This document shows, piece after piece, positions 49,548 through 60,497 of a stretch of DNA of 64,000 nucleotides. The stretch is from an uncultured Actinomycetota bacterium (lineage in GTDB: Bacteria > Actinomycetota > Actinomycetes > Propionibacteriales > Nocardioidaceae). The stretch's first letter is position 1. Each line of letters starts with the position of its first letter. The notes beneath the pieces are model-generated. The model was not told where the DNA came from, ran no database searches, and worked only from the letters and a program-made list of their open reading frames with translations. The translations under genes and the position numbers were made by a program. Location: assembly GCA_963825275.1 (NCBI GenBank), contig CAWGSW010000005.1, positions 34,171 through 98,170 on the forward strand, in the 5' to 3' direction.

Positions 49548-49640
49548 GAGACGACGCTAGGTCGGCGGTGTGAAGGGCACGTGAAGCCCGAGCGGTGAAC
49601 GGCCGCCGGCAGGCGCACGGCCGCGGCCTATGCTCGCGCC

Positions 49641-50510
<870 letters not shown>

Positions 50511-50514
50511 CCCG

Positions 50515-51955
50515 ATGAGCAGCGAGTGGCCGGCACGACGCGGCGGGGCCACGCAGTGGCCTGGTCGACCGTCACATCGCCTTCCTGGAGGCGCTGCGGG
50601 GCGCCGGGCTGCCGGTGTCGCTGGCCGAGGACCTCGACGCGATCGAGGCCCTGACCGCGCTGGACTGGGGCCACCGCACCACGATCCGCGACGGGTACGC
50701 CGCCACCCTGGTCAAGCGGCAGTCGCAGCGCCCGACCTTCGACACGCTGTTCGACCTCTACTTCCCACGCCTGGTCGGCGAGGGGGTCGGCGAGGGGTTC
50801 GGCGAGGGTTCGGGGGCCGAGGGCGAGGCAGGCGCGCCCGCGGAGGAGGCCGGCGTACGCGACAACGCCCAGGCCCTCGCCGCGTTCCGTGCGGCGCTCC
50901 TCGACGCGCTGGCGGCGGGCGACGAGCAGGCCCTCGCCGGCCTGGCGGTGGAGGCCGTCGCCCGGTTCGGCGCGATGCCCGGGCGTGGTCCGGGGCTGTC
51001 GTCGTGGTCGGCCTACACCGCGCTCCAGCGGGTCTCGCCGGCCGACCTGATCGAGCAGATCGTCCGGGCGCTGCTCGCCGAGGGCCGGGTCGAGGGCGAG
51101 GCGCAGCGGGCCGCCGGGCGCCGCGTCGGCGGCTTCACCCGGCAGGTCGAGGACGACGCCCGGCGCCGGATCGCGGAGGAGAAGGGGCCCGACCACGTCG
51201 CCAACGTGGCGGTGCGCCCGAGCATCGACCGGCTCGACTTCACCTCCGCCCGTCGGGCCGACCTCGAGGAGATGCGCCGCGAGATCTATCCGCTGGCCCG
51301 GCGCCTGGCCACCCGGCTGACCCAGGAGCACCACGCGCGCCGCCGCGGCCCGCTCGACTTCCGGCGTACCGTGCGCGCCTCGATCTCCACCGGCGGCGTC
51401 CCGCTCGTCACCCACCACAAGCCGAAGCGGCCGCACCGCACCGAGCTCGTCGTGCTCTGCGACGTCAGCGGCTCGGTGGCGAACTTCGCCCAGTTCACGC
51501 TGCTGCTGGTCTTCGCGCTGCGTGACCAGTTCCAGAAGGTGCGGGCGTTCACCTTCATCGACCATGTCCACGAGGTCACCCAGCACTTCAAGCCCGGCGC
51601 GGACGTCGCGGACGTGATGGCCGACCTGGCCGCGAGCACCGCGCACGCCGCGCTGTGGGGACGCACGAACTACGGGCGCGCGTTCACGAAGTTCCAGGAG
51701 CAGCACCCCGACGCGATCGGGCCGAAGTCGTCGCTGCTGATCCTGGGCGACGCCCGCTCGAACTACAGCGACCTCTCGGTGGGGGTGCTGCGGGACCTGG
51801 CCGGCGCCGCGCGGCACGCCTGGTGGCTCAACCCCGAGCACACCCGGCACTGGGACACGGGCGACTCGGCCGCTCGCGCGTACGGCGAGGTGGTCCCGAT
51901 GGTGGAGTGCCGCAACCTCACCCAGCTGGGCGAGTTCGTGCACGACATCCTCTGA
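50515..51955 (+). CDS. vWA domain protein (CoxE-like; frameshift near the start)
   Basis: LD.RRTVRAS..TGG, LCDVSGS (MIDAS), GRTNYG, ILGDARSN, WLNPE, ECRNL. Confidence 0.85.
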
Positions 51956-52219: not shown

Positions 52220-53323
52220 TCATGAGACGGATCCCGCTCCGGCCATGCGGAACCGCCGCGACAGGAGGGCCGTGCACACGCCACCGATGAGGATCGGCCC
52301 GAGGTAGGTGAACATCCGGAAGACGAACACGGCCGCGACGATGGCGTCGGCGTCGCGTCCACCCGCAGCCCAGTTCAAGGCGCCGATGTAGAGCGCCTCG
52401 GCGATGCCGACATTGCCCGGTGTGATCTCTACGAGCGTCGCGAGGCGGACCACCGTGTAGACCGCGAAGACCTCGATGGGAGTGAGGACCTGGGCTTCGA
52501 CGCCCAGCCCGCGGAGCGAGGCGAGGAGGATCAGGTAGGTGGCGACCTCGCGGAGCACGAAGAGGCCGACCAGGCCCAGCGCGTGTTCTCGGAAGATTTC
52601 GACGACGTCGCGGCGCCACTCCACGACCGTCTCCCCGAACTCCTCGCCCGGGGGCCTGCGGGCCATCCCCCGGAGCCAGTTGAGGAATCGACCCAGGCGC
52701 GCCCCGAAGCGCCTGGCGAACTGCTCGTTGCGCATGATGAGGACGGCGAGGACGAGCAGCACGAGCGAGACGCCAAGGCCGACCAGGGCGAGCGTCCAGA
52801 CCGCTCCCGGCACGTCCGCCTGCGTCGAGAGGAGGACGAGCCCGATCGAGGGCAGGACGAGTGGCAGCACGTTGCTGACCGAGCTGTTGACGACGTAGGA
52901 CGTGGCGAAGTCCTCCGTGCTGATGCCGAGCTTGCGGTAGGTCACGTAGCGCGCTGCCGTGCCGGAAGGTCCCGGCACGGTGTTCGAGACCACGGCGGCC
53001 GACTCCTGCGCGAGGAAGGCGTCCGGGAAGCGAAGGGGTTCAATGATCAGGGCGAACGCGCCGGCCTTGCACCCCTCCACCACCAGGGTCAGCGCGGTCA
53101 GGAAGAGCACTGCGACCGGATCGAGCGACGTGAGTGCGTCCCAGACGTCCTCGTAGGAGGCGAAGCTCGGGATCAGCACGCCAAAGATGAGATAAAGCAG
53201 CAGCAGGGTGAGGGTGATCCGGATGATGCTCTGCCCGGGTGAGGTCTTCTCCGGCTCCAGGATCGGAGGCATGCGACGGTCCGCGTCGCTCCCGGGCGAC
53301 GTCGGCGGATCCGATTCGCTCAC
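52220..53323 (-). CDS. Lysylphosphatidylglycerol synthase TM-domain (YbhN/UPF0104, flippase-like) protein
   Basis: VSNTVPG, ITPGNVGIAE, VFVFRMFTY; multi-TM. Confidence 0.75.
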   Translation of the reverse strand: MSESDPPTSPGSDADRRMPPILEPEKTSPGQSIIRITLTLLLLYLIFGVLIPSFASYEDVWDALTSLDPVAVLFLTALTLVVEGCKAGAFALIIEPLRFPDAFLAQESAAVVSNTVPGPSGTAARYVTYRKLGISTEDFATSYVVNSSVSNVLPLVLPSIGLVLLSTQADVPGAVWTLALVGLGVSLVLLVLAVLIMRNEQFARRFGARLGRFLNWLRGMARRPPGEEFGETVVEWRRDVVEIFREHALGLVGLFVLREVATYLILLASLRGLGVEAQVLTPIEVFAVYTVVRLATLVEITPGNVGIAEALYIGALNWAAGGRDADAIVAAVFVFRMFTYLGPILIGGVCTALLSRRFRMAGAGSVS

Positions 53324-53441: not shown

Positions 53442-54734
53442 TCAGCCGGTGAGGTAACCGAGTCCCCGGATCCGCGCAATCGCGGCGCGGAGCTCCGGGT
53501 GCTCTGCCCGGTCGGCGGCCCGTCCGCCCGCGAGGTGGGCGGCCTCGCCGCGGGCGTCGCCCCCGTCGAAGACCACCGTCAGCCGGTTGGCCGCGCCGGC
53601 GTTGACGAGGGATCCGAGCAGCGCCACCGGGTCTGACCGGTCCTCCAGCGACAGCACGTGGGTGCCCTCGGGGATGCGCGGCACCTGGGCCGACGGCGCA
53701 CCGGCGGTCACGACCTGCTCGACGACGAACGCCTCGGAGGAGACCGTGGCGGCGATCTCGGCCGCGGTCACCCCACCCCGGGCGGACCCGACCAGCATCA
53801 CCCGGGCGCCGGGGTCGCCCTCGACGGCGGACTCGAGGGCGCGCACGACCTGGGCGGCGTACGTCGTGTGGTCGCCGCCCACGAGCCGCAGCCGGCGACC
53901 CGTGCCGCCGTCGGGCCCGGGCAGGAAGGCGATGTAGCGACCGGGTGCGACCTTCTGGACGGTGACCTTGCGCACGGCACCGGCCAGGGCCGCCATCAGC
54001 TCCTCCAGGTTCCGGGGGGTGGCGCCACCGGGCCGGTCGACCGGAGTGGCGGGCGGCGGGGTGTCCGCCTCGACGAGCCCGCCGGCGATGTCGCGTAGCG
54101 CCGAGCCGGGTTCGGCCTCGAAGGGGTCGATGCCGACAGCGCGCAGGCCCCCTCGGGCTGCGAGCCGCCCGGACTCGCCCGCGAGCACGCTCGCGGTGAG
54201 CAGCGACCGCATCTGCAGGCCGTCGATCAGGCCGCCGCCGCCGCTGGTGACGTGGTCCAGCAGCTGCGGGTTGTTCTCGGCGAGCTCGTTGAGGTAGCTC
54301 GCCACCTCGTCGCGGTCGAGCGCGTCGGTCTCGATCAGGCCGGCCGAGACGATCGCCCCGCCGAGGGCCACCTCGGGCGCGAGGTAGCCGATGGCGCGGC
54401 CCGCGATCGAGCCGAGGGTCTTGTAGGCGGCGTCCTGCAGCTCGTCGATCCACTGGTAGGTCAGCACGGTCGCCCGCACCACCAGGGCGTCGGCGTCGAG
54501 CTCGAGGGAGCGGGTGAGCAGGCCCTGCTTGCCGGTCGTGGCCGCACGGATGTCGCTCTCGGCCTCGGCGAACGTCGGACGGGACAGCTCGGCCGACTCC
54601 GAGACCGCCGGGTCGTCGAGGATCTCGGGACCGAGCCGCGCACGGCTGCGGACCTCCTCGCCGGAGGAGTCGAAGAGGTCGGCCAGTCGGAGCATCCGCT
54701 CGTACTTGTCGGCCAGGTCGGCAGCCTGCGTCAT
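53442..54734 (-). CDS. Helical N-domain + degenerate alpha/beta-hydrolase (cassette B, gene 3)
   Basis: Aligns by eye over its full length with 57605-59101, but the nucleophile elbow is GSARGG. YQWID at aa 93-97. ATGA overlap with the upstream gene. Confidence 0.75.
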   Translation of the reverse strand: MTQAADLADKYERMLRLADLFDSSGEEVRSRARLGPEILDDPAVSESAELSRPTFAEAESDIRAATTGKQGLLTRSLELDADALVVRATVLTYQWIDELQDAAYKTLGSIAGRAIGYLAPEVALGGAIVSAGLIETDALDRDEVASYLNELAENNPQLLDHVTSGGGGLIDGLQMRSLLTASVLAGESGRLAARGGLRAVGIDPFEAEPGSALRDIAGGLVEADTPPPATPVDRPGGATPRNLEELMAALAGAVRKVTVQKVAPGRYIAFLPGPDGGTGRRLRLVGGDHTTYAAQVVRALESAVEGDPGARVMLVGSARGGVTAAEIAATVSSEAFVVEQVVTAGAPSAQVPRIPEGTHVLSLEDRSDPVALLGSLVNAGAANRLTVVFDGGDARGEAAHLAGGRAADRAEHPELRAAIARIRGLGYLTG

Positions 54735-55657
54735 GCGATCACCTCGGCGAGCACGGGCGCCAGCTCGGGCGCGAGGTCGGCCGGTTCGAGCCGTCGTACC
54801 TCCACCCGGTGGACGCCGTCGACCTGGTGCGGGCGCAGCGTGTGCCAGCCGTCGGCCAGCAGTACCCACGACACGACGCCGACGACGCTGGTCTCGTCGC
54901 CGGACACGTCGGCGACCAGCGCCCGGATCCGTCCCCGGCACTCGGTGGCGAGGGCCGAGAGGACCCCGGTGACGTCGGCGTCGGTCATCGCTCCGCCCCG
55001 GCCGTCGGTGACGTCACCGCTGTGCTGGGCGACGAGCACGGCCACGAGGTCGGACCGTCCGGTGCGCAGCGCCTCGCCGGCGGCATCGGCCAGCTCGTAG
55101 GGCAGGTCGACGACGGGAGGCAGGCTCGAGTCGTGCAGGGTGAGGTCCTCGGGGACCACGGCCACCCGGGCCAGCTCGATGGGCCACTGGCTGGTCGCGA
55201 ACCACGCGAGCTCGAACACCACCCCGTCCACGGTCGCCAGCGTGGCCACGGCGCTGCGGTCCTGCCGGTGCCAGGCCTTGGCGTGGACGCCGCCGACGCT
55301 GACGTCGAGGTCGAGCGCCACGGTGGGGGTCGCCAGCAGGCCGACCGCGCCCACGAGGCCCTCGTCGACGGCGCCGTCGGAGAGCAGGCCGCGGCGGGCC
55401 AGCGAGGTGGCCGGGTCGGCCAAGGCCTCGAGGGCCGCGGCGTACGCCGTGTCCTCGGCCGAGCCGGGGCTCTGGCCGAGCCGGCCGTCGAGGCTGGTGC
55501 TGCCCGCCGCGGTGACGGCCTCGAACGGCAGCGGGGCGCCGCCCGCCCGCTCGGCCACGAGGCGCAGCTCGGGAAGGGTCAGCGCGACCCGGCGTGGCAG
55601 CGCCTCGAGCAGGCCGGGCGGCGGGGGCGGAGCAGTGCTCAGGTCGATCGTGGCCAT
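54731..55657 (-). CDS. EspG-like protein (cassette B, gene 2)
   Basis: LTLPEL..VAE.AG..PLP, LARRGLL..G.VD..L..AV.LLATP..ALDL, and a C-terminal VSWVL..DGW..L.P pattern reminiscent of EspG-family chaperones. Confidence 0.55.
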   Translation of the reverse strand: MATIDLSTAPPPPPGLLEALPRRVALTLPELRLVAERAGGAPLPFEAVTAAGSTSLDGRLGQSPGSAEDTAYAAALEALADPATSLARRGLLSDGAVDEGLVGAVGLLATPTVALDLDVSVGGVHAKAWHRQDRSAVATLATVDGVVFELAWFATSQWPIELARVAVVPEDLTLHDSSLPPVVDLPYELADAAGEALRTGRSDLVAVLVAQHSGDVTDGRGGAMTDADVTGVLSALATECRGRIRALVADVSGDETSVVGVVSWVLLADGWHTLRPHQVDGVHRVEVRRLEPADLAPELAPVLAEVIA

Positions 55658-55658
55658 G

Positions 55659-56102
55659 TCAGAGTCCCGGAAGGTCGACGGTCAGCCAGTCCTGGTGACC
55701 GGGCGGTGGGGGCGTGAACCCGGCGAGCCTCTGGTCGCCGGGCTCGGCAGTGCGGCGTACGCCGGCGGGGTCGTCGTGGGACTCGACGCGCACGACGCGG
55801 GTGCGAGCGTCCGCGACCAGTGCTGCAGCCCGGCGCTCCGCCCCGGCGATGGCGTCGTTGAGCCGGTCCACCTCGTGCAGGTGCTGCTCGAGGGAGTCGG
55901 CCGCGGCGTCGTGCTGGGCGGCCGCCTCGCGCAGGTGGGCCGCTCGGTCGCGGATGCGCTCGCGCATCGAGTCGGCAGCCCGACCGCTCCAGACGATCCC
56001 CTCGGTCCGTGCCACCAGCTGGTCGGCCAGCGCCCGGATGTCCAGGCCCTGCTCGCGCAGCTGGGCGGCTCGTTTCCGCATCACGTCGGTGTCGCCGTAC
56101 AT
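55659..56102 (-). CDS. WXG100/PPE-like helical protein (cassette B, gene 1)
   Basis: 147 aa, Ala-rich helices with W38-S-G turn (WSGRAADSM), C-terminal FTPPPPGHQDWLTVDLPGL. Confidence 0.7.
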   Translation of the reverse strand: MYGDTDVMRKRAAQLREQGLDIRALADQLVARTEGIVWSGRAADSMRERIRDRAAHLREAAAQHDAAADSLEQHLHEVDRLNDAIAGAERRAAALVADARTRVVRVESHDDPAGVRRTAEPGDQRLAGFTPPPPGHQDWLTVDLPGL

Positions 56103-56312
56103 GCCTCACGTCCTTCGGGTGATACCCGCCGCGTGCCCGATATCGGCGGGGGCGAAACCCCGGTGGACGCAATGTGGGGACGCAATCTCCCCACAGTCCC
56201 GGCATGTGGAACGGGTGGCGCTCCTCACGTCGCGTAACCCGCCGCCCCCGGGGCTCGTTTCCCGGGGAGACCGGGCGGTGTCGCGCTGCGCCGGCCTCGA
56301 AAGGTGGAGTCC

Positions 56313-57587
56313 ATGCCGCGCTCAGTCCCGGGCAGCACCGCCCGCACGTCCGTCCGTCCGCTCGTGATGGGGCTGGTGACGCTGCTGGTGTCCGTGCTGA
56401 CGGCGACGGCCGGCCCCGCCCACGCCGCAACCACCCCGACGCCGGACGACGTACGCCGCGCGGTGTTCGTCGGCAACAACTGGGACGGCACCGCCGACAT
56501 CCTGGCGCCCGGCACCTTCAAGCGCCTCGGGCGGATCAACGTGATCCCCGACTACGACGAGCGCATGCAGGAGATCGCGACCACCCCGGACCGGTTGGCC
56601 TACTTCCTGGCCATCCGCGAGCTGATCGGCGAGGGCCACGACCAGTTCGTCGACGACATGTACTCCTCCAACGACGGCACCCTCCTGGTGGTCTCGCGTC
56701 CGTCCTTCGCGGACGTCGTCGCGATCAGCCTGCAGACCAGGCAGATCGTGTGGCGCTTCCCGGTCGCCGGCTACCGCTCGGACCACATGGCGATGTCGCC
56801 CGACGGCAGGCGGGTCGTCGTGAGTGCCTCGACCGCCAACGTCGTGCACGTGCTGCGCGTCGCCGACGGCAAGGAGATCGGCCAGTTCCCGTCCGGGGGG
56901 TCGCCTCACGAGAGCGTCTTCATCGACGGCGGGAAGAAGATCCTGCACGCGAGCATCGGCATGGTCTACAGCCCGGTCGACCAGCCGGAGGCCGACGCGA
57001 CCAAGCAGGAGCGGGTGCTGCAGATCGTCGATGCCAGGACGTTCGAGGTGCTGCGCAGGTACGACCTGCGCAAGGCGCTCGACGAGCGCGGGATGAAGGA
57101 CACCAGCACCGCGGTGCGTCCGATGACGCTGTCACCGGACGAGAAGAAGTTCTACTTCCAGCTGTCGTTCTTCCACGGCTTCGTCGAGCTGGACCGGGCC
57201 TCGGGCAAGATCACCCGGGTCAAGCACCTGCCCAACCTGGTGAAGGACACCCCGCGCGAGCAGTACCTCCTCGACTCCGCCCAGCACGGGATCGCCATGA
57301 ACCCCCGCGGGACCAAGATCTGCGTCGCCGGCACCATGTCCGACTACGCCACCGTCGTGGACGCCCGCACGTTCGAGCGGGGCACGCTCATCAAGGGCGG
57401 TCTCAAGCCCTACTGGGTGACGCCGAGCTGGGACGGTCGGACCTGCTACATCTCCTGGAGCGGCTCGGACAAGATCTCGAAGATCTCCTACCGCACCGGC
57501 CGGATCACCCAGAGCGTCGCGGTGGGCGACCACCCGCAACGGGTCCGCAACGGCTTCGTCGCGACCTCGCTCGTGGACGGGCTCTGA
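56313..57587 (+). CDS. Secreted YncE-like beta-propeller protein
   Basis: Signal peptide ending AHA-A; repeats DHMAMSPDG, PHES, TLSPDEKK, HGIAMNP, PYWVTPSWDG, HPQRVR. Confidence 0.7.
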   Translation: MPRSVPGSTARTSVRPLVMGLVTLLVSVLTATAGPAHAATTPTPDDVRRAVFVGNNWDGTADILAPGTFKRLGRINVIPDYDERMQEIATTPDRLAYFLAIRELIGEGHDQFVDDMYSSNDGTLLVVSRPSFADVVAISLQTRQIVWRFPVAGYRSDHMAMSPDGRRVVVSASTANVVHVLRVADGKEIGQFPSGGSPHESVFIDGGKKILHASIGMVYSPVDQPEADATKQERVLQIVDARTFEVLRRYDLRKALDERGMKDTSTAVRPMTLSPDEKKFYFQLSFFHGFVELDRASGKITRVKHLPNLVKDTPREQYLLDSAQHGIAMNPRGTKICVAGTMSDYATVVDARTFERGTLIKGGLKPYWVTPSWDGRTCYISWSGSDKISKISYRTGRITQSVAVGDHPQRVRNGFVATSLVDGL

Positions 57588-57604
57588 AACAACCCGCGTG
57601 CGAG

Positions 57605-59101
57605 CTACGGGTCGCGGGTGATCTGGAAGACCTGGCTCGCCACCGTCTGGTCGGGCTGAGCGCCGTTGCCGAGGAAGCCGTGGGCGTGCAGGCTGTCGAG
57701 CTGCTCGACCAGCGACGGGTCGTCGGAGGCGTCCACCGCAGCCGCACCGCTGGTGTAGTGGCTGAGGCTGTGGTTGTCGCCGATGTCGGTGCCCTGGGCG
57801 TCGAACTGGACGGTCACCTGCTGGGCTGAGTCCGGGTTGTCCTCACCGTCGAGCAGCGGCACCACGTCGCCCTGGTTCTCCAGCGAGAGGACGTGGGTGC
57901 CGGGCGGGAACCCGTCGACCTGTGCGGTCGGGGAGCCGGCGGTCACGACGTTGGTGACGTTGTAGTCGCTGCCCTGGCTCAGGATCGCCGCCGCCTCCAT
58001 GCCGCCCTGGGAGTGCCCGGCGAGCAGCACCGGGTCGCCGGGGTGGATGCCCGCGGCGTCCATGGCGTGCTGGATGCCCTGCAGGTAGGCGTTGTCCTGG
58101 CCGTGGATCAGCAGGAAGTTGGTGGGCATGTCCCGCACGTCGCCGTCCTGGGTCCACGGCAGCGTCGCCAGGTCGTCGGTCCCGGGCAGGTAGACGATGT
58201 GCCGGATGTGGCCGTGGCCGTCGTCGATCGTCTGGATCTCGATCGTGCCGTTGTTCTCGGGGTGCTGCTCGTCGGACAGGTCGTTGGTCTGGTCGAGGTG
58301 GGCCAGCAGGTCGGCGAGGCTCCCCGGCTGGGTTCCGCCGCTGTCGACACTGAGGTCGCTCGGCCGGACCTGGACGTCGCCGTCGTCGCCGTAGAGCAGG
58401 GCCAGCAGGCCCGCCGCCGACTCCGTGTCGGGGGTGAGCGAGGGGATCCCGAACGGGCCGCCCGGGGTGAGGGGGGTCGTGCCGTCCCAGAGGCCGTCGA
58501 GCAGGCCGCCACCGCCGTTGATCAGGTGCTGCATCACCTCGGGGTGGTCGGCGAGCCAGTCCTGCAGCGCCTCGCCACCCCCGGCGGCGTCCTCCTCGAG
58601 CTGCTGCTGCAGGGCGGGGGGCAAGTTCTGCCAGACGACGTAGGCCAGGGGCCCGACCGTCACGGCGGTGGCCAGCAGTGCCGGGATCGACGCCGTCAGC
58701 GTGAACCCGATGGCGCGGCCGACGAGGTGGTCGACGGCCTCGAACGTGAGGTGGACCAGCTCGTCGGCCTCCTGCAGGACGCGGACCGTGACCCGGATCA
58801 GCACCGCATCGGTCTCCCACCCGAGCGACTCGACCAGCACGCCGTCCGGGCCGGTCGTGGCGGCCAGGACGGCCACCTCGGCCTCGCCGAAGCTGAGCGG
58901 CGACAGGATTGCCGACTCCACCAGGTCGCCGTTGTGCAGGGTGCGCCCACCGAGCGCGGCCCAGTCCCGCAACTGGTTGCCGGCCGTGTCGTACGTCGTG
59001 GCCAGCGCGAGGACCTTGGCATAGGTCGCGGCCAGCCCCTCGGAGCCGCCGGTGATCCGGGTGATCGGTGCGGGGTCGCCCCCGCCCCCGGGTGGTTTCA
59101 T
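57605..59101 (-). CDS. Helical N-domain + alpha/beta-hydrolase/lipase (cassette A, gene 3)
   Basis: IVYLPGT (oxyanion), LAGHSQGGM (58001-58018), VVTAGSP, ENQGDVVP, NHS; complete Ser-Asp-His triad. ATGA overlap with the upstream gene. Confidence 0.8.
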   Translation of the reverse strand: MKPPGGGGDPAPITRITGGSEGLAATYAKVLALATTYDTAGNQLRDWAALGGRTLHNGDLVESAILSPLSFGEAEVAVLAATTGPDGVLVESLGWETDAVLIRVTVRVLQEADELVHLTFEAVDHLVGRAIGFTLTASIPALLATAVTVGPLAYVVWQNLPPALQQQLEEDAAGGGEALQDWLADHPEVMQHLINGGGGLLDGLWDGTTPLTPGGPFGIPSLTPDTESAAGLLALLYGDDGDVQVRPSDLSVDSGGTQPGSLADLLAHLDQTNDLSDEQHPENNGTIEIQTIDDGHGHIRHIVYLPGTDDLATLPWTQDGDVRDMPTNFLLIHGQDNAYLQGIQHAMDAAGIHPGDPVLLAGHSQGGMEAAAILSQGSDYNVTNVVTAGSPTAQVDGFPPGTHVLSLENQGDVVPLLDGEDNPDSAQQVTVQFDAQGTDIGDNHSLSHYTSGAAAVDASDDPSLVEQLDSLHAHGFLGNGAQPDQTVASQVFQITRDP

Positions 59102-60039
59102 GCCCGGACTCCCGTCACGAGGCGGGCGACCTCGACGCCGAGTCGCAGGGGCTCGACCGGCTCGACCCGCACCATCGGGGTCTGCCCGGAGGTGTGCGGG
59201 GTGAGCGCACGCCAGCCGTCGGGGAAGAGCAGCCAGCTGACCCACCCCGCCTTCCGGGAGCCCCGGCGGCCGAGGCCGGAGACGACGGTCTGCATGCGGC
59301 CGAGGGTGCTGGCGTGGAGGAGCCGCAGCTGCTCGTCGCTGGCGGCCGGCCCGAGGGGGGCCTCCGCGTCGTCGACCCGGACCCTGCCCACGTGTCGCCG
59401 GACGAGCTCGCCGAACACGTCCTCGCGGTGCAGGCGCAGCGCCTCGCCGGTGCCGAGCAGGAGCTCGTGCGGCAGCTCCACCACGCGGGCGGGTGGGGCG
59501 GCGCTGGTCGTCGGCGTGGGCACGGTGACCGCGCGGGCGAGCTCGACCTGCCAGAGGTCGTCGTCGAACCAGCCGAGCTCGAGCAGGGGAGAGCCGGCCG
59601 TCGCGAGCGTGGTGACCCGTCCCGCCCGCAGCCGCTGCCACGAGTGGACCTGCGCGATCCCGGACGCGGCGGCCGCGCGACGCACGGAGACATCCACCTC
59701 GACGAGCACCTCCGGCGCGCCGAGGACGGCCATCGCGGCCACGACCTCGGGGTGCAGCTCGCCGTCCTCGGTGAGGAGCCGCAGCTGCCGCAGCTCGGCC
59801 TCGGGGTCGGGCGCCGGGTCAGCGGCGGGAGCCTGGTCCGCCCGGGCGCCCGGGGCGTCGAGGGCGCGCAGGGTCCGTGACGGCTCGGGCAGGTGGTGCC
59901 AGGGCAGGGGGGTGTCGGTGAGCTCCGCGACGTGCTCGACGGTGGTGCGGGAGATCCGGAACCGGCGCGGCAGCCGGGCCACCGGGTCGGTCAGGGGCGG
60001 CGCCGGCGTGCCGTCGAGGCGGAGCGCGACCGCGGCCAT
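59098..60039 (-). CDS. EspG-like protein (cassette A, gene 2)
   Basis: Paralog of 54731-55657 (LPRR..., PLP, LELGWF..LW.VELAR..VP, LPHEL..GTGEALR, GWVSWLL..DGW.ALTP). TGATG overlap with the upstream gene. Confidence 0.55.
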   Translation of the reverse strand: MAAVALRLDGTPAPPLTDPVARLPRRFRISRTTVEHVAELTDTPLPWHHLPEPSRTLRALDAPGARADQAPAADPAPDPEAELRQLRLLTEDGELHPEVVAAMAVLGAPEVLVEVDVSVRRAAAASGIAQVHSWQRLRAGRVTTLATAGSPLLELGWFDDDLWQVELARAVTVPTPTTSAAPPARVVELPHELLLGTGEALRLHREDVFGELVRRHVGRVRVDDAEAPLGPAASDEQLRLLHASTLGRMQTVVSGLGRRGSRKAGWVSWLLFPDGWRALTPHTSGQTPMVRVEPVEPLRLGVEVARLVTGVRA

Positions 60040-60497
60040 CAGCGCAGCCCCGGCAGCTCGACGTCGAGCCAGTCGCGGCTGCCGGACGGCGGCGGCACGA
60101 ACCGGTCGAGCAGCTCGTCGCCGGCGTCGGGCAGCACGTGCCGGAGCCCGTCGGCCACCCCGTTGAGGATCCCGTGGCCGATGTCGGCAAGGCGGTCGCG
60201 GGCGCCGTCCACGAGGCTGCGCACCCGGTGCTCGATCGAGGCGATCAGGTCCTTGAGCCGGTCGACCTCGTGCGCGTGGTGGTCGAGGGCGTCGGCGGCG
60301 TCCTCGTGCAGGCCGGCGGTGCGGCGCAGCGCGGCGGCGCGGTCCCGGGTGCGGCGGCGCAGCGCGTCGGCCGCGAGTCCGGTCCAGTGCACCTGGTCGG
60401 CCTGGGTGACGAGGCTGTCGGCCTCGCTGCGGATGTCGGTGGCCTGGTCGCGCAGGGCGCGGGCCAGGCCGCGGATCACGGTGGTGTCGCCGTACAT
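60039..60497 (-). CDS. WXG100/PPE-like helical protein (cassette A, gene 1)
   Basis: 152 aa; MYGDT start, W38-T-G (WTGLAADAL), H..AAD.L..H..EVDRL, tail FVPPPSGSRDWLDVELPGLR; RBS GAGGAG. Confidence 0.7.
   Translation of the reverse strand: MYGDTTVIRGLARALRDQATDIRSEADSLVTQADQVHWTGLAADALRRRTRDRAAALRRTAGLHEDAADALDHHAHEVDRLKDLIASIEHRVRSLVDGARDRLADIGHGILNGVADGLRHVLPDAGDELLDRFVPPPSGSRDWLDVELPGLR

Follow-up and report, generated by a model that had tools for sequence, protein, structure and literature searches.

Two paralogous three-gene cassettes linked to an ESX-4-like locus in an actinobacterium of the Nocardioidaceae: candidate chaperoned substrate sets for type VII secretion

The stretch of DNA analyzed here, called the window, comprises 64,000 nucleotides from an uncultured bacterium of the Nocardioidaceae (assembly GCA_963825275.1, contig CAWGSW010000005.1, positions 34,171 to 98,170). 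Two paralogous three-gene cassettes are encoded on its minus strand, cassette A at 57605–60497 and cassette B at 53442–56102, and both are translationally coupled. Gene 1 of each cassette encodes a small helical protein with a WxG motif, gene 2 a protein related by its predicted fold to the EspG chaperones, and gene 3 a long helical region joined to an alpha/beta-hydrolase domain; the individual genes are referred to as A1 to A3 and B1 to B3. Each cassette is probably a chaperoned substrate set of the neighbouring ESX-4-like type VII secretion system (T7SS), through which a lipase-like hydrolase would be delivered.

The two cassettes have the same gene order and equally tight junctions, as had been claimed in a first-pass annotation made from the letters of the window alone. 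Read from the sequence and the coordinates of the open reading frames, A1 and A2 meet in TGATG with a 1-nt overlap and A2 and A3 in ATGA with a 4-nt overlap. B1 and B2 are separated by a 1-nt gap, and B2 and B3 are again joined by ATGA. The positions of all six genes and their junctions agree with the earlier description. The A and B copies are 49% identical for gene 1 (E = 2e-37), 35% for gene 2 (E = 3e-30) and 31% for gene 3 (E = 7e-45), similarities far beyond chance that point to three clear pairs of paralogs. Since the G+C content of this region is 70–75%, most of its long open reading frames are spurious, and the real genes were chosen by codon-position G+C and by homology. A scan of the locus DNA (72% G+C) for promoters and terminators was uninformative.

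An AlphaFold2 model of A2 was built on an alignment of 47 relatives and reached a predicted local distance difference test score (pLDDT) of 92.2 and a predicted template modelling score (pTM) of 0.84. When the PDB was searched with this model by Foldseek, the best 18 matches were all chains of EspG1, EspG3 or EspG5 (E = 3e-13 to 2e-8, probability 1.00), with template modelling (TM) scores of 0.43–0.58 on the query and 0.41–0.66 on the target and about 300 aligned columns in 17 of the 18; the next match followed at E = 1e-3. The EspG fold that had been suspected for gene 2 in the first-pass annotation thus emerged from this comparison. At the level of sequence, a gene 2 profile searched against the sequences of the PDB had EspG3 as its sole match, at E = 0.69 and 0.11. 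A2 alone matched no Pfam family. B2 is recovered by the gene 2 profile at E = 1.8e-77, and its match to the Pfam EspG model, PF14011, is faint (E = 0.17; 11.9 bits, the cut-off being 27; residues 77–295). An exhaustive profile search (301 representative clusters) supplied an alignment of 69 members of the gene 2 family, of which 12 matched PF14011 on their own, the best at E = 9.7e-10. The Pfam model found no match in the window's own genome; across the class it matches 12 of 301 genomes, nearly all of them in one family, and none of the 13 in the family to which the window belongs. Because the strong fold matches are exclusively to EspG and the sequences of the family point the same way, gene 2 appears to belong to the EspG lineage, as a diverged branch mostly missed by the Pfam model.

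The WxG motif of gene 1 is at W38–G40 in both copies, exactly where it had first been placed. Among 43 gene 1 relatives all have G40, and at least 90% have W38. A WxG in the turn of a helical hairpin is common to the whole WXG100 superfamily, and gene 1 was assigned with models of that superfamily and of T7SS_signal (PF21725, PF25547 and PF06013). A1 scores 26.9 bits with T7SS_signal (PF21725), which is borderline to the cut-off of 27, and more weakly matches WXG100_2, EspA/EspE, PPE and WXG100. Of its 43 relatives, 42 match T7SS_signal (best E = 5.5e-8), 24 match WXG100 and 20 match WXG100_2; many hold a precomputed PF21725 assignment. A gene 1 profile searched against PDB sequences gave coiled-coil noise and a weak EsxG-type match only. 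By its Pfam matches gene 1 is a WxG-bearing member of the WXG100/T7SS_signal group and a putative partner protein.

The first-pass annotation had likened gene 1 to PPE proteins, and of this likeness the membership in the WxG-bearing WXG100 superfamily stood. Scores with the PPE model (PF00823) fall below its cut-off of 26 bits for both A1 (14.6 bits) and B1 (13.5 bits), and for all of the 30 relatives, out of 43, that match it (best E = 3.5e-4). There is no Pro-Pro-Glu motif at the N-terminus of gene 1, which begins with an invariant MYGDT in the 43 relatives. On these two grounds an assignment to the PPE family was rejected. Gene 1 also has a conserved C-terminal tail, FVPPPxGxxDWLxVxLPGL, which is found in 81 of the 94 Nocardioides gene 1 proteins that precede a gene 2. 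None of 12 gene 1 proteins in families without gene 2 has it, and it is missing in the short gene 1 proteins of Nocardioides pairs without gene 2. Inspection by eye of the three outgroup loci that have gene 2 revealed a similar DWL segment in one (L116), which the pattern missed. This hints, weakly since the lineages are few, at binding of the tail by the gene 2 chaperone. The tail is a candidate docking site for the chaperone or for EccC.

The N-terminal region of gene 3 was studied with a model of A3 residues 1–245, made with 49 relatives (pLDDT 82). It predicts helices at residues 20–55, 58–63 and 68–82, a very long helix at 88–159, and further helices at 162–185, 187–208 and 226–237. The helical region of gene 3 spans about 210–240 aa, more than the 95–110 aa or so estimated in the first-pass annotation. 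Its first hairpin fits WXG100 hairpins locally, for example EsxA of S. aureus (2vrz_A; TM score 0.72 on the target, root mean square deviation 2.3 Å). Fold matches to ESCRT-III, Vipp1 and BAR proteins were set aside as generic long-helix matches. Profile-profile comparison of gene 1 with this region by hhalign gave a probability of 0.2%, hence no detectable homology. No Sec-type signal peptide was apparent, as judged by eye, at the N-termini of gene 1 or gene 3.

Comparisons with PE and PPE were made through the Pfam models and through PDB entries by name. No PE or PPE structure occurred among the fold matches of the N-region. The PE model (PF00934) is absent from the full Pfam table of A3, and it is not among the 25 most-matched of 40 Pfam families for 49 gene 3 proteins at E values up to 1; gene 3 contains no Pro-Glu motif. 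With no such match or motif, and with a long multi-helix domain where PE has a hairpin, the PE assignment of the N-region was rejected. What was retained of the earlier PE proposal is the ancestral YxxxD motif.

A WxG on one protein and a YxxxD/E on another make up the two-part signal of EsxA/B and of PE/PPE. The position of YxxxD/E was defined in 122 gene 3 proteins as the alignment column corresponding to A3 residues 109–113, which lies inside the long helix of the model, not at its end. A maximum-likelihood tree of gene 3 has an A clade and a long-branched B clade, both within Nocardioides. All 64 proteins of the B clade have both the tyrosine and the D/E. Among 16 proteins from other families the tyrosine is present in 10 and the D/E in 15, and the 42 A-clade proteins uniformly have the aspartate, with F, L or T at the tyrosine position. 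Because these residues are conserved in the B clade and in most proteins of other families, the ancestral state of gene 3 would have been a canonical YxxxD/E on the cargo, matched by the WxG on its small partner.

The C-terminal part of A3 has the alpha/beta-hydrolase domain recognized in the first-pass annotation, with the triad S364 (in GHSQGG), D412 and H444. A PGAP1-like Pfam match was found in 49 of 49 gene 3 relatives (best E = 3.6e-6), and there are others to Abhydrolase_1, Palm_thioest, Abhydrolase_8 (16 of 49) and Lipase_3 (11 of 49). Matches of this part to PDB sequences center on the nucleophile elbow of lipases and esterases. Serine, histidine and aspartate are invariant in the 42 A-clade proteins and in the 16 outgroup proteins, and the payload of A3 is a Ser-Asp-His hydrolase of the lipase/esterase type. 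In the 64 B-clade proteins the aspartate is always present, the serine remains in 11 and the histidine in none. B3 itself has alanine for serine (GSARGG) and has lost the catalytic histidine. The B-clade proteins are nevertheless intact, and their median identity is 61% compared to 51% in the A clade. B3 has the marks of a conserved pseudoenzyme with its own partner and chaperone genes.

A complete T7SS was found on the same contig when the genome was searched. The gene eccC occupies contig positions 105979–110622 on the minus strand, 11.3 kb from A1 and 7.8 kb past the end of the window. It is followed by a weak EccD-like gene, two WXG100 genes, genes for a 155-aa protein and a 440-aa Pro/Gly-rich protein, EccD, EccB and a mycosin. 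The whole ESX-4-like locus spans contig positions 105979–118902, after which come dnaX and recR, and it is a complete core without EspG, PE or PPE. Its two WXG100 genes are in a stretch of lower third-position G+C, its 155-aa protein has no Pfam family and the 440-aa protein has a helical front end. A second WXG100 pair is on another contig (C9), at about 403.3–403.9 kb. A VapB-like antitoxin-family gene that overlaps the start of a divergent HerA-like ATPase gene (contig 100714–102791), along with a Na+/H+ exchanger and an ABC transporter, accounts for part of the roughly 8 kb by which the cassette and eccC are separated in this genome but not in relatives.

The first-pass annotation had placed the cassettes away from any ESX core, which proved to be an effect of the window's edge. 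In 26 of 80 related Nocardioides loci sampled for synteny, gene 1 is preceded on its strand by eccC, which ends 2.6–6.4 kb before it (median 4.3 kb). The gene eccC is also within about 10 kb of the cassette in all five further genomes checked. In the L116 locus, which belongs to a different family, an EccC-like gene is directly upstream of gene 1.

The order of genes 1, 2 and 3 on one strand is kept in all of the 80 Nocardioides loci. These include 44 with a single cassette and 12 with two, and a further 15 in which a gene 1-gene 3 pair without gene 2 is followed by a full cassette. In six loci (L017, L019, L032, L034, L035 and L069) an active-site-intact gene 3 without a gene 2 of its own is directly upstream of a full B-type cassette. 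Gene 1 is longer there, 165–185 aa, with the tail variant VPxPGDxAWLxxDxPGL, and one chaperone may serve both pairs in these loci. The gene 2 profile was found in 8 of 10 sampled genomes of the genus and, at a convincing score, in no other genus of the class. The gene 3 family, including the N-region, is present in 65 of 301 genomes and 34 of 150 genera of the class (Actinomycetes). Outside Nocardioides, gene 3 is nearly always preceded by a relative of gene 1, and in two other families there is also a relative of gene 2. Because the pair is widespread and gene 2 restricted, the core of the module appears to be the partner and its cargo, the chaperone being a lineage-specific addition.

The site of the cassettes in the chromosome is fixed in the genus, its conserved flanks being genes for an aminotransferase and an FAD oxidoreductase at one end and the VWA/AAA pair at the other. 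In the window (Table 1) the aminotransferase gene is separated from A1 by a gap of 58 nt, and the AAA (MoxR-like) and VWA (CoxE-like) genes represent the other flank of the site, conserved in 59 and 63 of the 80 loci. A YNCE-like beta-propeller gene with an apparent N-terminal signal sequence stands between the two cassettes. It adjoins a cassette in 14 of the 80 loci, the cassettes of many relatives are directly adjacent to each other, and the gene is outside the module. An LPG_synthase_TM gene, with an MprF-like membrane region, lies 118 nt downstream of B3 on the same strand. None of the 80 loci has it beside the cassette, and it seems to have been inserted locally and to be outside the module.

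Table 1. Features of the two cassettes and adjoining genes (window coordinates)
Feature	Position	Strand	Description
A1	60039–60497	minus	152 aa; WXG100/T7SS_signal-like helical partner (Tap-like); WxG at 60378–60386
A1 C-terminal tail	60039–60110	minus	conserved tail motif
A2	59098–60039	minus	313 aa; EspG-fold chaperone candidate
A3	57605–59101	minus	498 aa; putative effector, helical N-region and Ser-Asp-His hydrolase domain
A3 helical N-region	about 58390–59040	minus	about residues 20–237; predicted model
A3 hydrolase domain		minus	about residues 280–498; nucleophile motif GHSQGG at 58001–58018
B1	55659–56102	minus	147 aa; A1 paralog; WxG at 55983–55991
B1 C-terminal tail	55659–55730	minus	conserved tail motif
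B2	54731–55657	minus	308 aa; A2 paralog, EspG-like
B3	53442–54734	minus	430 aa; A3 paralog, predicted dead active site; GSARGG at 53772–53789
B3 YQWID	54444–54458	minus	canonical YxxxD; sequence motif
YNCE-like beta-propeller gene	56304–57587	plus	between the cassettes
LPG_synthase_TM gene	52220–53323	minus	downstream of B3
AAA (MoxR-like) and VWA (CoxE-like) genes	49599–51955	plus	conserved flank of the cassette site

With these elements the probable working of the module can be outlined. Gene 1 would pair with the helical N-region of gene 3, which would contribute the YxxxD/E half of the signal, and the two would form a composite helical targeting bundle. The gene 2 protein would shield a hydrophobic surface and in this way keep the complex soluble and fit for export while it is in the cytoplasm. 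The surface may be the tip of the hydrophobic helix in gene 3 or the conserved tail at the C-terminus of gene 1. Export of the complex by EccC would follow, carrying the A3 lipase/esterase-like serine hydrolase to the envelope or outside the cell. B3, an old paralog that would still be under selection, is probably a non-catalytic binding, regulatory or partner protein exported in the same way.

Several findings weigh against this outline. The fold search with the gene 3 N-region gave no significant match in the PDB (all E > 1), and the region belongs to no Pfam family. In A3 the motif is LQEAD (residues 109–113), a degenerate YxxxD in which leucine replaces the tyrosine, and which seems to be a weakened form of the signal. 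A chaperone is not obligatory, since many gene 1-gene 3 pairs have no EspG-like gene. In the window's genome, about 8 kb of unrelated genes that are not found there in relatives come between the cassette and eccC. This analysis shows the folds and motifs of the proteins, the families to which they belong, and the synteny and eccC linkage of their genes; that the three proteins form a complex and are exported, on what substrate the enzyme acts and what B3 does are inferences, which for interaction and export is a further point on this side. Finally, A3 residues 130–160 form a hydrophobic, uncharged helix just before the turn at 160–161, and this could be a membrane anchor inserted by Sec/YidC.

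That helix leads to a different explanation, in which gene 3 is a membrane-anchored envelope hydrolase and not a T7SS substrate. The hydrophobic helix would be a signal anchor, genes 1 and 2 would encode cytoplasmic partners or regulators of the N-terminal domain of gene 3, and the nearness to the ESX locus would be inherited synteny. The stretch goes far back in the gene 3 family, where it is 24–44 residues long and uncharged, with Kyte-Doolittle values up to 1.7–2.4, the value of 2.4 being found in other families. The genes unrelated to secretion that separate the cassette from eccC would also fit. A proposal that the hydrophobic helix tracks the presence of gene 2 was rejected, as the segments of families without gene 2 are equally or more hydrophobic. 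However, the partners are of kinds otherwise known from the handling of T7SS substrates (WXG100-like and EspG fold), YxxxD/E is conserved, and linkage to eccC recurs, even in an unrelated family. In the B clade the hydrophobic stretch has largely decayed, the longest uncharged run being 13 residues, yet genes 1 and 2 are kept. A membrane-anchored hydrolase is on these grounds quite improbable.

The hydrolase payload raises another alternative, that of an interbacterial toxin locus. A3 would be an antibacterial lipase or phospholipase exported by ESX-4, and B3, or something not seen here, would protect the producer or serve as a decoy. The layout matches that of the Eat/Tap loci, in which alpha/beta hydrolases are among the commonest payloads predicted in Actinomycetota (PMC13444075), and lipase toxins of the T7SS exist in Bacillota (PMC10730906). 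The A3 hydrolase matches lipase-type families and has one weak match to Tle3. A downstream immunity gene is expected in Eat/Tap loci (PMC13444075), but in the window neither A3 nor B3 is followed by a co-directional gene that resembles one for immunity, and the same holds for gene 3 in most of the related loci. The neighbours are a convergent beta-propeller gene or the conserved VWA/AAA pair. The cassettes occupy a fixed syntenic site across the genus, not a variable island. In the genomes sampled the N-region profile always occurs with the hydrolase domain in the same frame and with no other payload, so that the family does not look polymorphic. Loci with only A and loci with only B both exist, and B is therefore not simply the immunity partner of A. 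A toxin locus is thus unlikely, and delivery of the hydrolase as a chaperoned T7SS substrate is the reading we prefer.

Among type VII systems ESX-4 counts as the ancestral one. According to reviews, EspG, PE and PPE joined ESX systems later in their evolution, and ESX-4 has none of them (PMC4791881; PMC11217815). A genus-wide cassette beside an ESX-4-like locus suggests that chaperoned, multi-part targeting is older and wider than the expansion of PE/PPE. It is possible, if somewhat doubtful, that the three-part logic of WxG partner, YxxxD payload partner and EspG chaperone predates mycobacterial PE/PPE, with which its origin is usually placed, and was present before them in the ESX-4-type systems of non-mycolate actinobacteria, and that Nocardioides duplicated it into an active enzyme and a conserved, exported pseudoenzyme acting as non-catalytic partner, inhibitor or lipid-binding factor. 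If that were true, the module would be a window on the origin of PE-PPE-EspG and would include a secreted pseudoenzyme that has its own function. The Nocardioides cassettes provide a setting, in soil bacteria that are harmless, in which to study cargo recognition by EspG-type chaperones, and the conserved dead paralog is a case for asking what a secreted pseudoenzyme does.

Literature searches on EspG in Nocardioides, on DUF1023 and on the Pfam accessions found nothing relevant. The first-pass annotation had known of no characterized example of this arrangement, a view that is overtaken by published work. Eat/Tap loci were described in 2026 in M. abscessus and other Actinomycetota, and consist of EatA with TapA1/TapA2 and EatI; in M. 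abscessus, EatA is bound at its long helical N-domain by small Tap proteins of the WXG100 family, and export of the Tap/Eat complex by ESX-4 depends on EccC4 (PMC13444075). EspG-fold chaperones for substrates other than PE/PPE are also known (PMC11217815).

Compared by their described layout, the Eat/Tap loci resemble the cassettes in that a gene for a WXG100-family partner lies upstream of one for an effector, whose long helical N-domain is joined to an enzyme at the C-terminus, in being associated with an ESX-4-type T7SSa, and in alpha/beta hydrolase being among the commonest payloads predicted for them. They differ in several respects. The cassettes have one partner gene instead of two, and an EspG-fold gene between partner and effector; in the Eat/Tap paper EspG appears only within cited references, and no EspG-like gene is described (PMC13444075). 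No conserved, co-directional immunity-like gene comes after gene 3, where the neighbours are convergent genes or the next cassette. The cassettes also have a fixed core-genome position beside the ESX locus and a conserved, catalytically dead second copy.

Known PE-PPE-EspG sets, of the mycobacterial ESX-1, ESX-3 and ESX-5, include the PE25-PPE41-EspG5 complex (PDB 4KXR and 4W4L) and the PE-fused lipase LipY. The same three roles would be filled in the cassettes: a WxG partner, a YxxxD/E partner able to carry a hydrolase, and an EspG-fold chaperone. In contrast to these sets, neither motifs nor above-threshold family matches place gene 1 with PPE or the N-region of gene 3 with PE, the YxxxD partner is a multi-helix region of about 210–240 aa with a hydrophobic helix, and the system is ESX-4-like in a non-mycolate actinobacterial host.

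The LXG toxin, Lap partner and EsaE chaperone sets of T7SSb, and the sets with the EspG-like proteins TscG/TshG in other T7SS variants, also have an effector with a helical N-domain, small helical partners and a composite targeting signal, and in some of them a chaperone with a predicted EspG fold, EsaE (PMC11217815). They belong to a different phylum, and the cassettes are associated with a T7SSa that has EccB, EccD and a mycosin. The cassette proteins have no LXG domain match, whereas the LXG sets are polymorphic toxins with immunity genes. No new mechanism emerges from the finding. The closest known systems are the Eat/Tap loci and PE-PPE-EspG, and beside them the points of interest in the Nocardioides cassettes are a putative EspG-fold chaperone that accompanies an ESX-4-type system in a non-mycolate host, the position beside eccC across the genus, and a conserved pseudoenzyme cassette.

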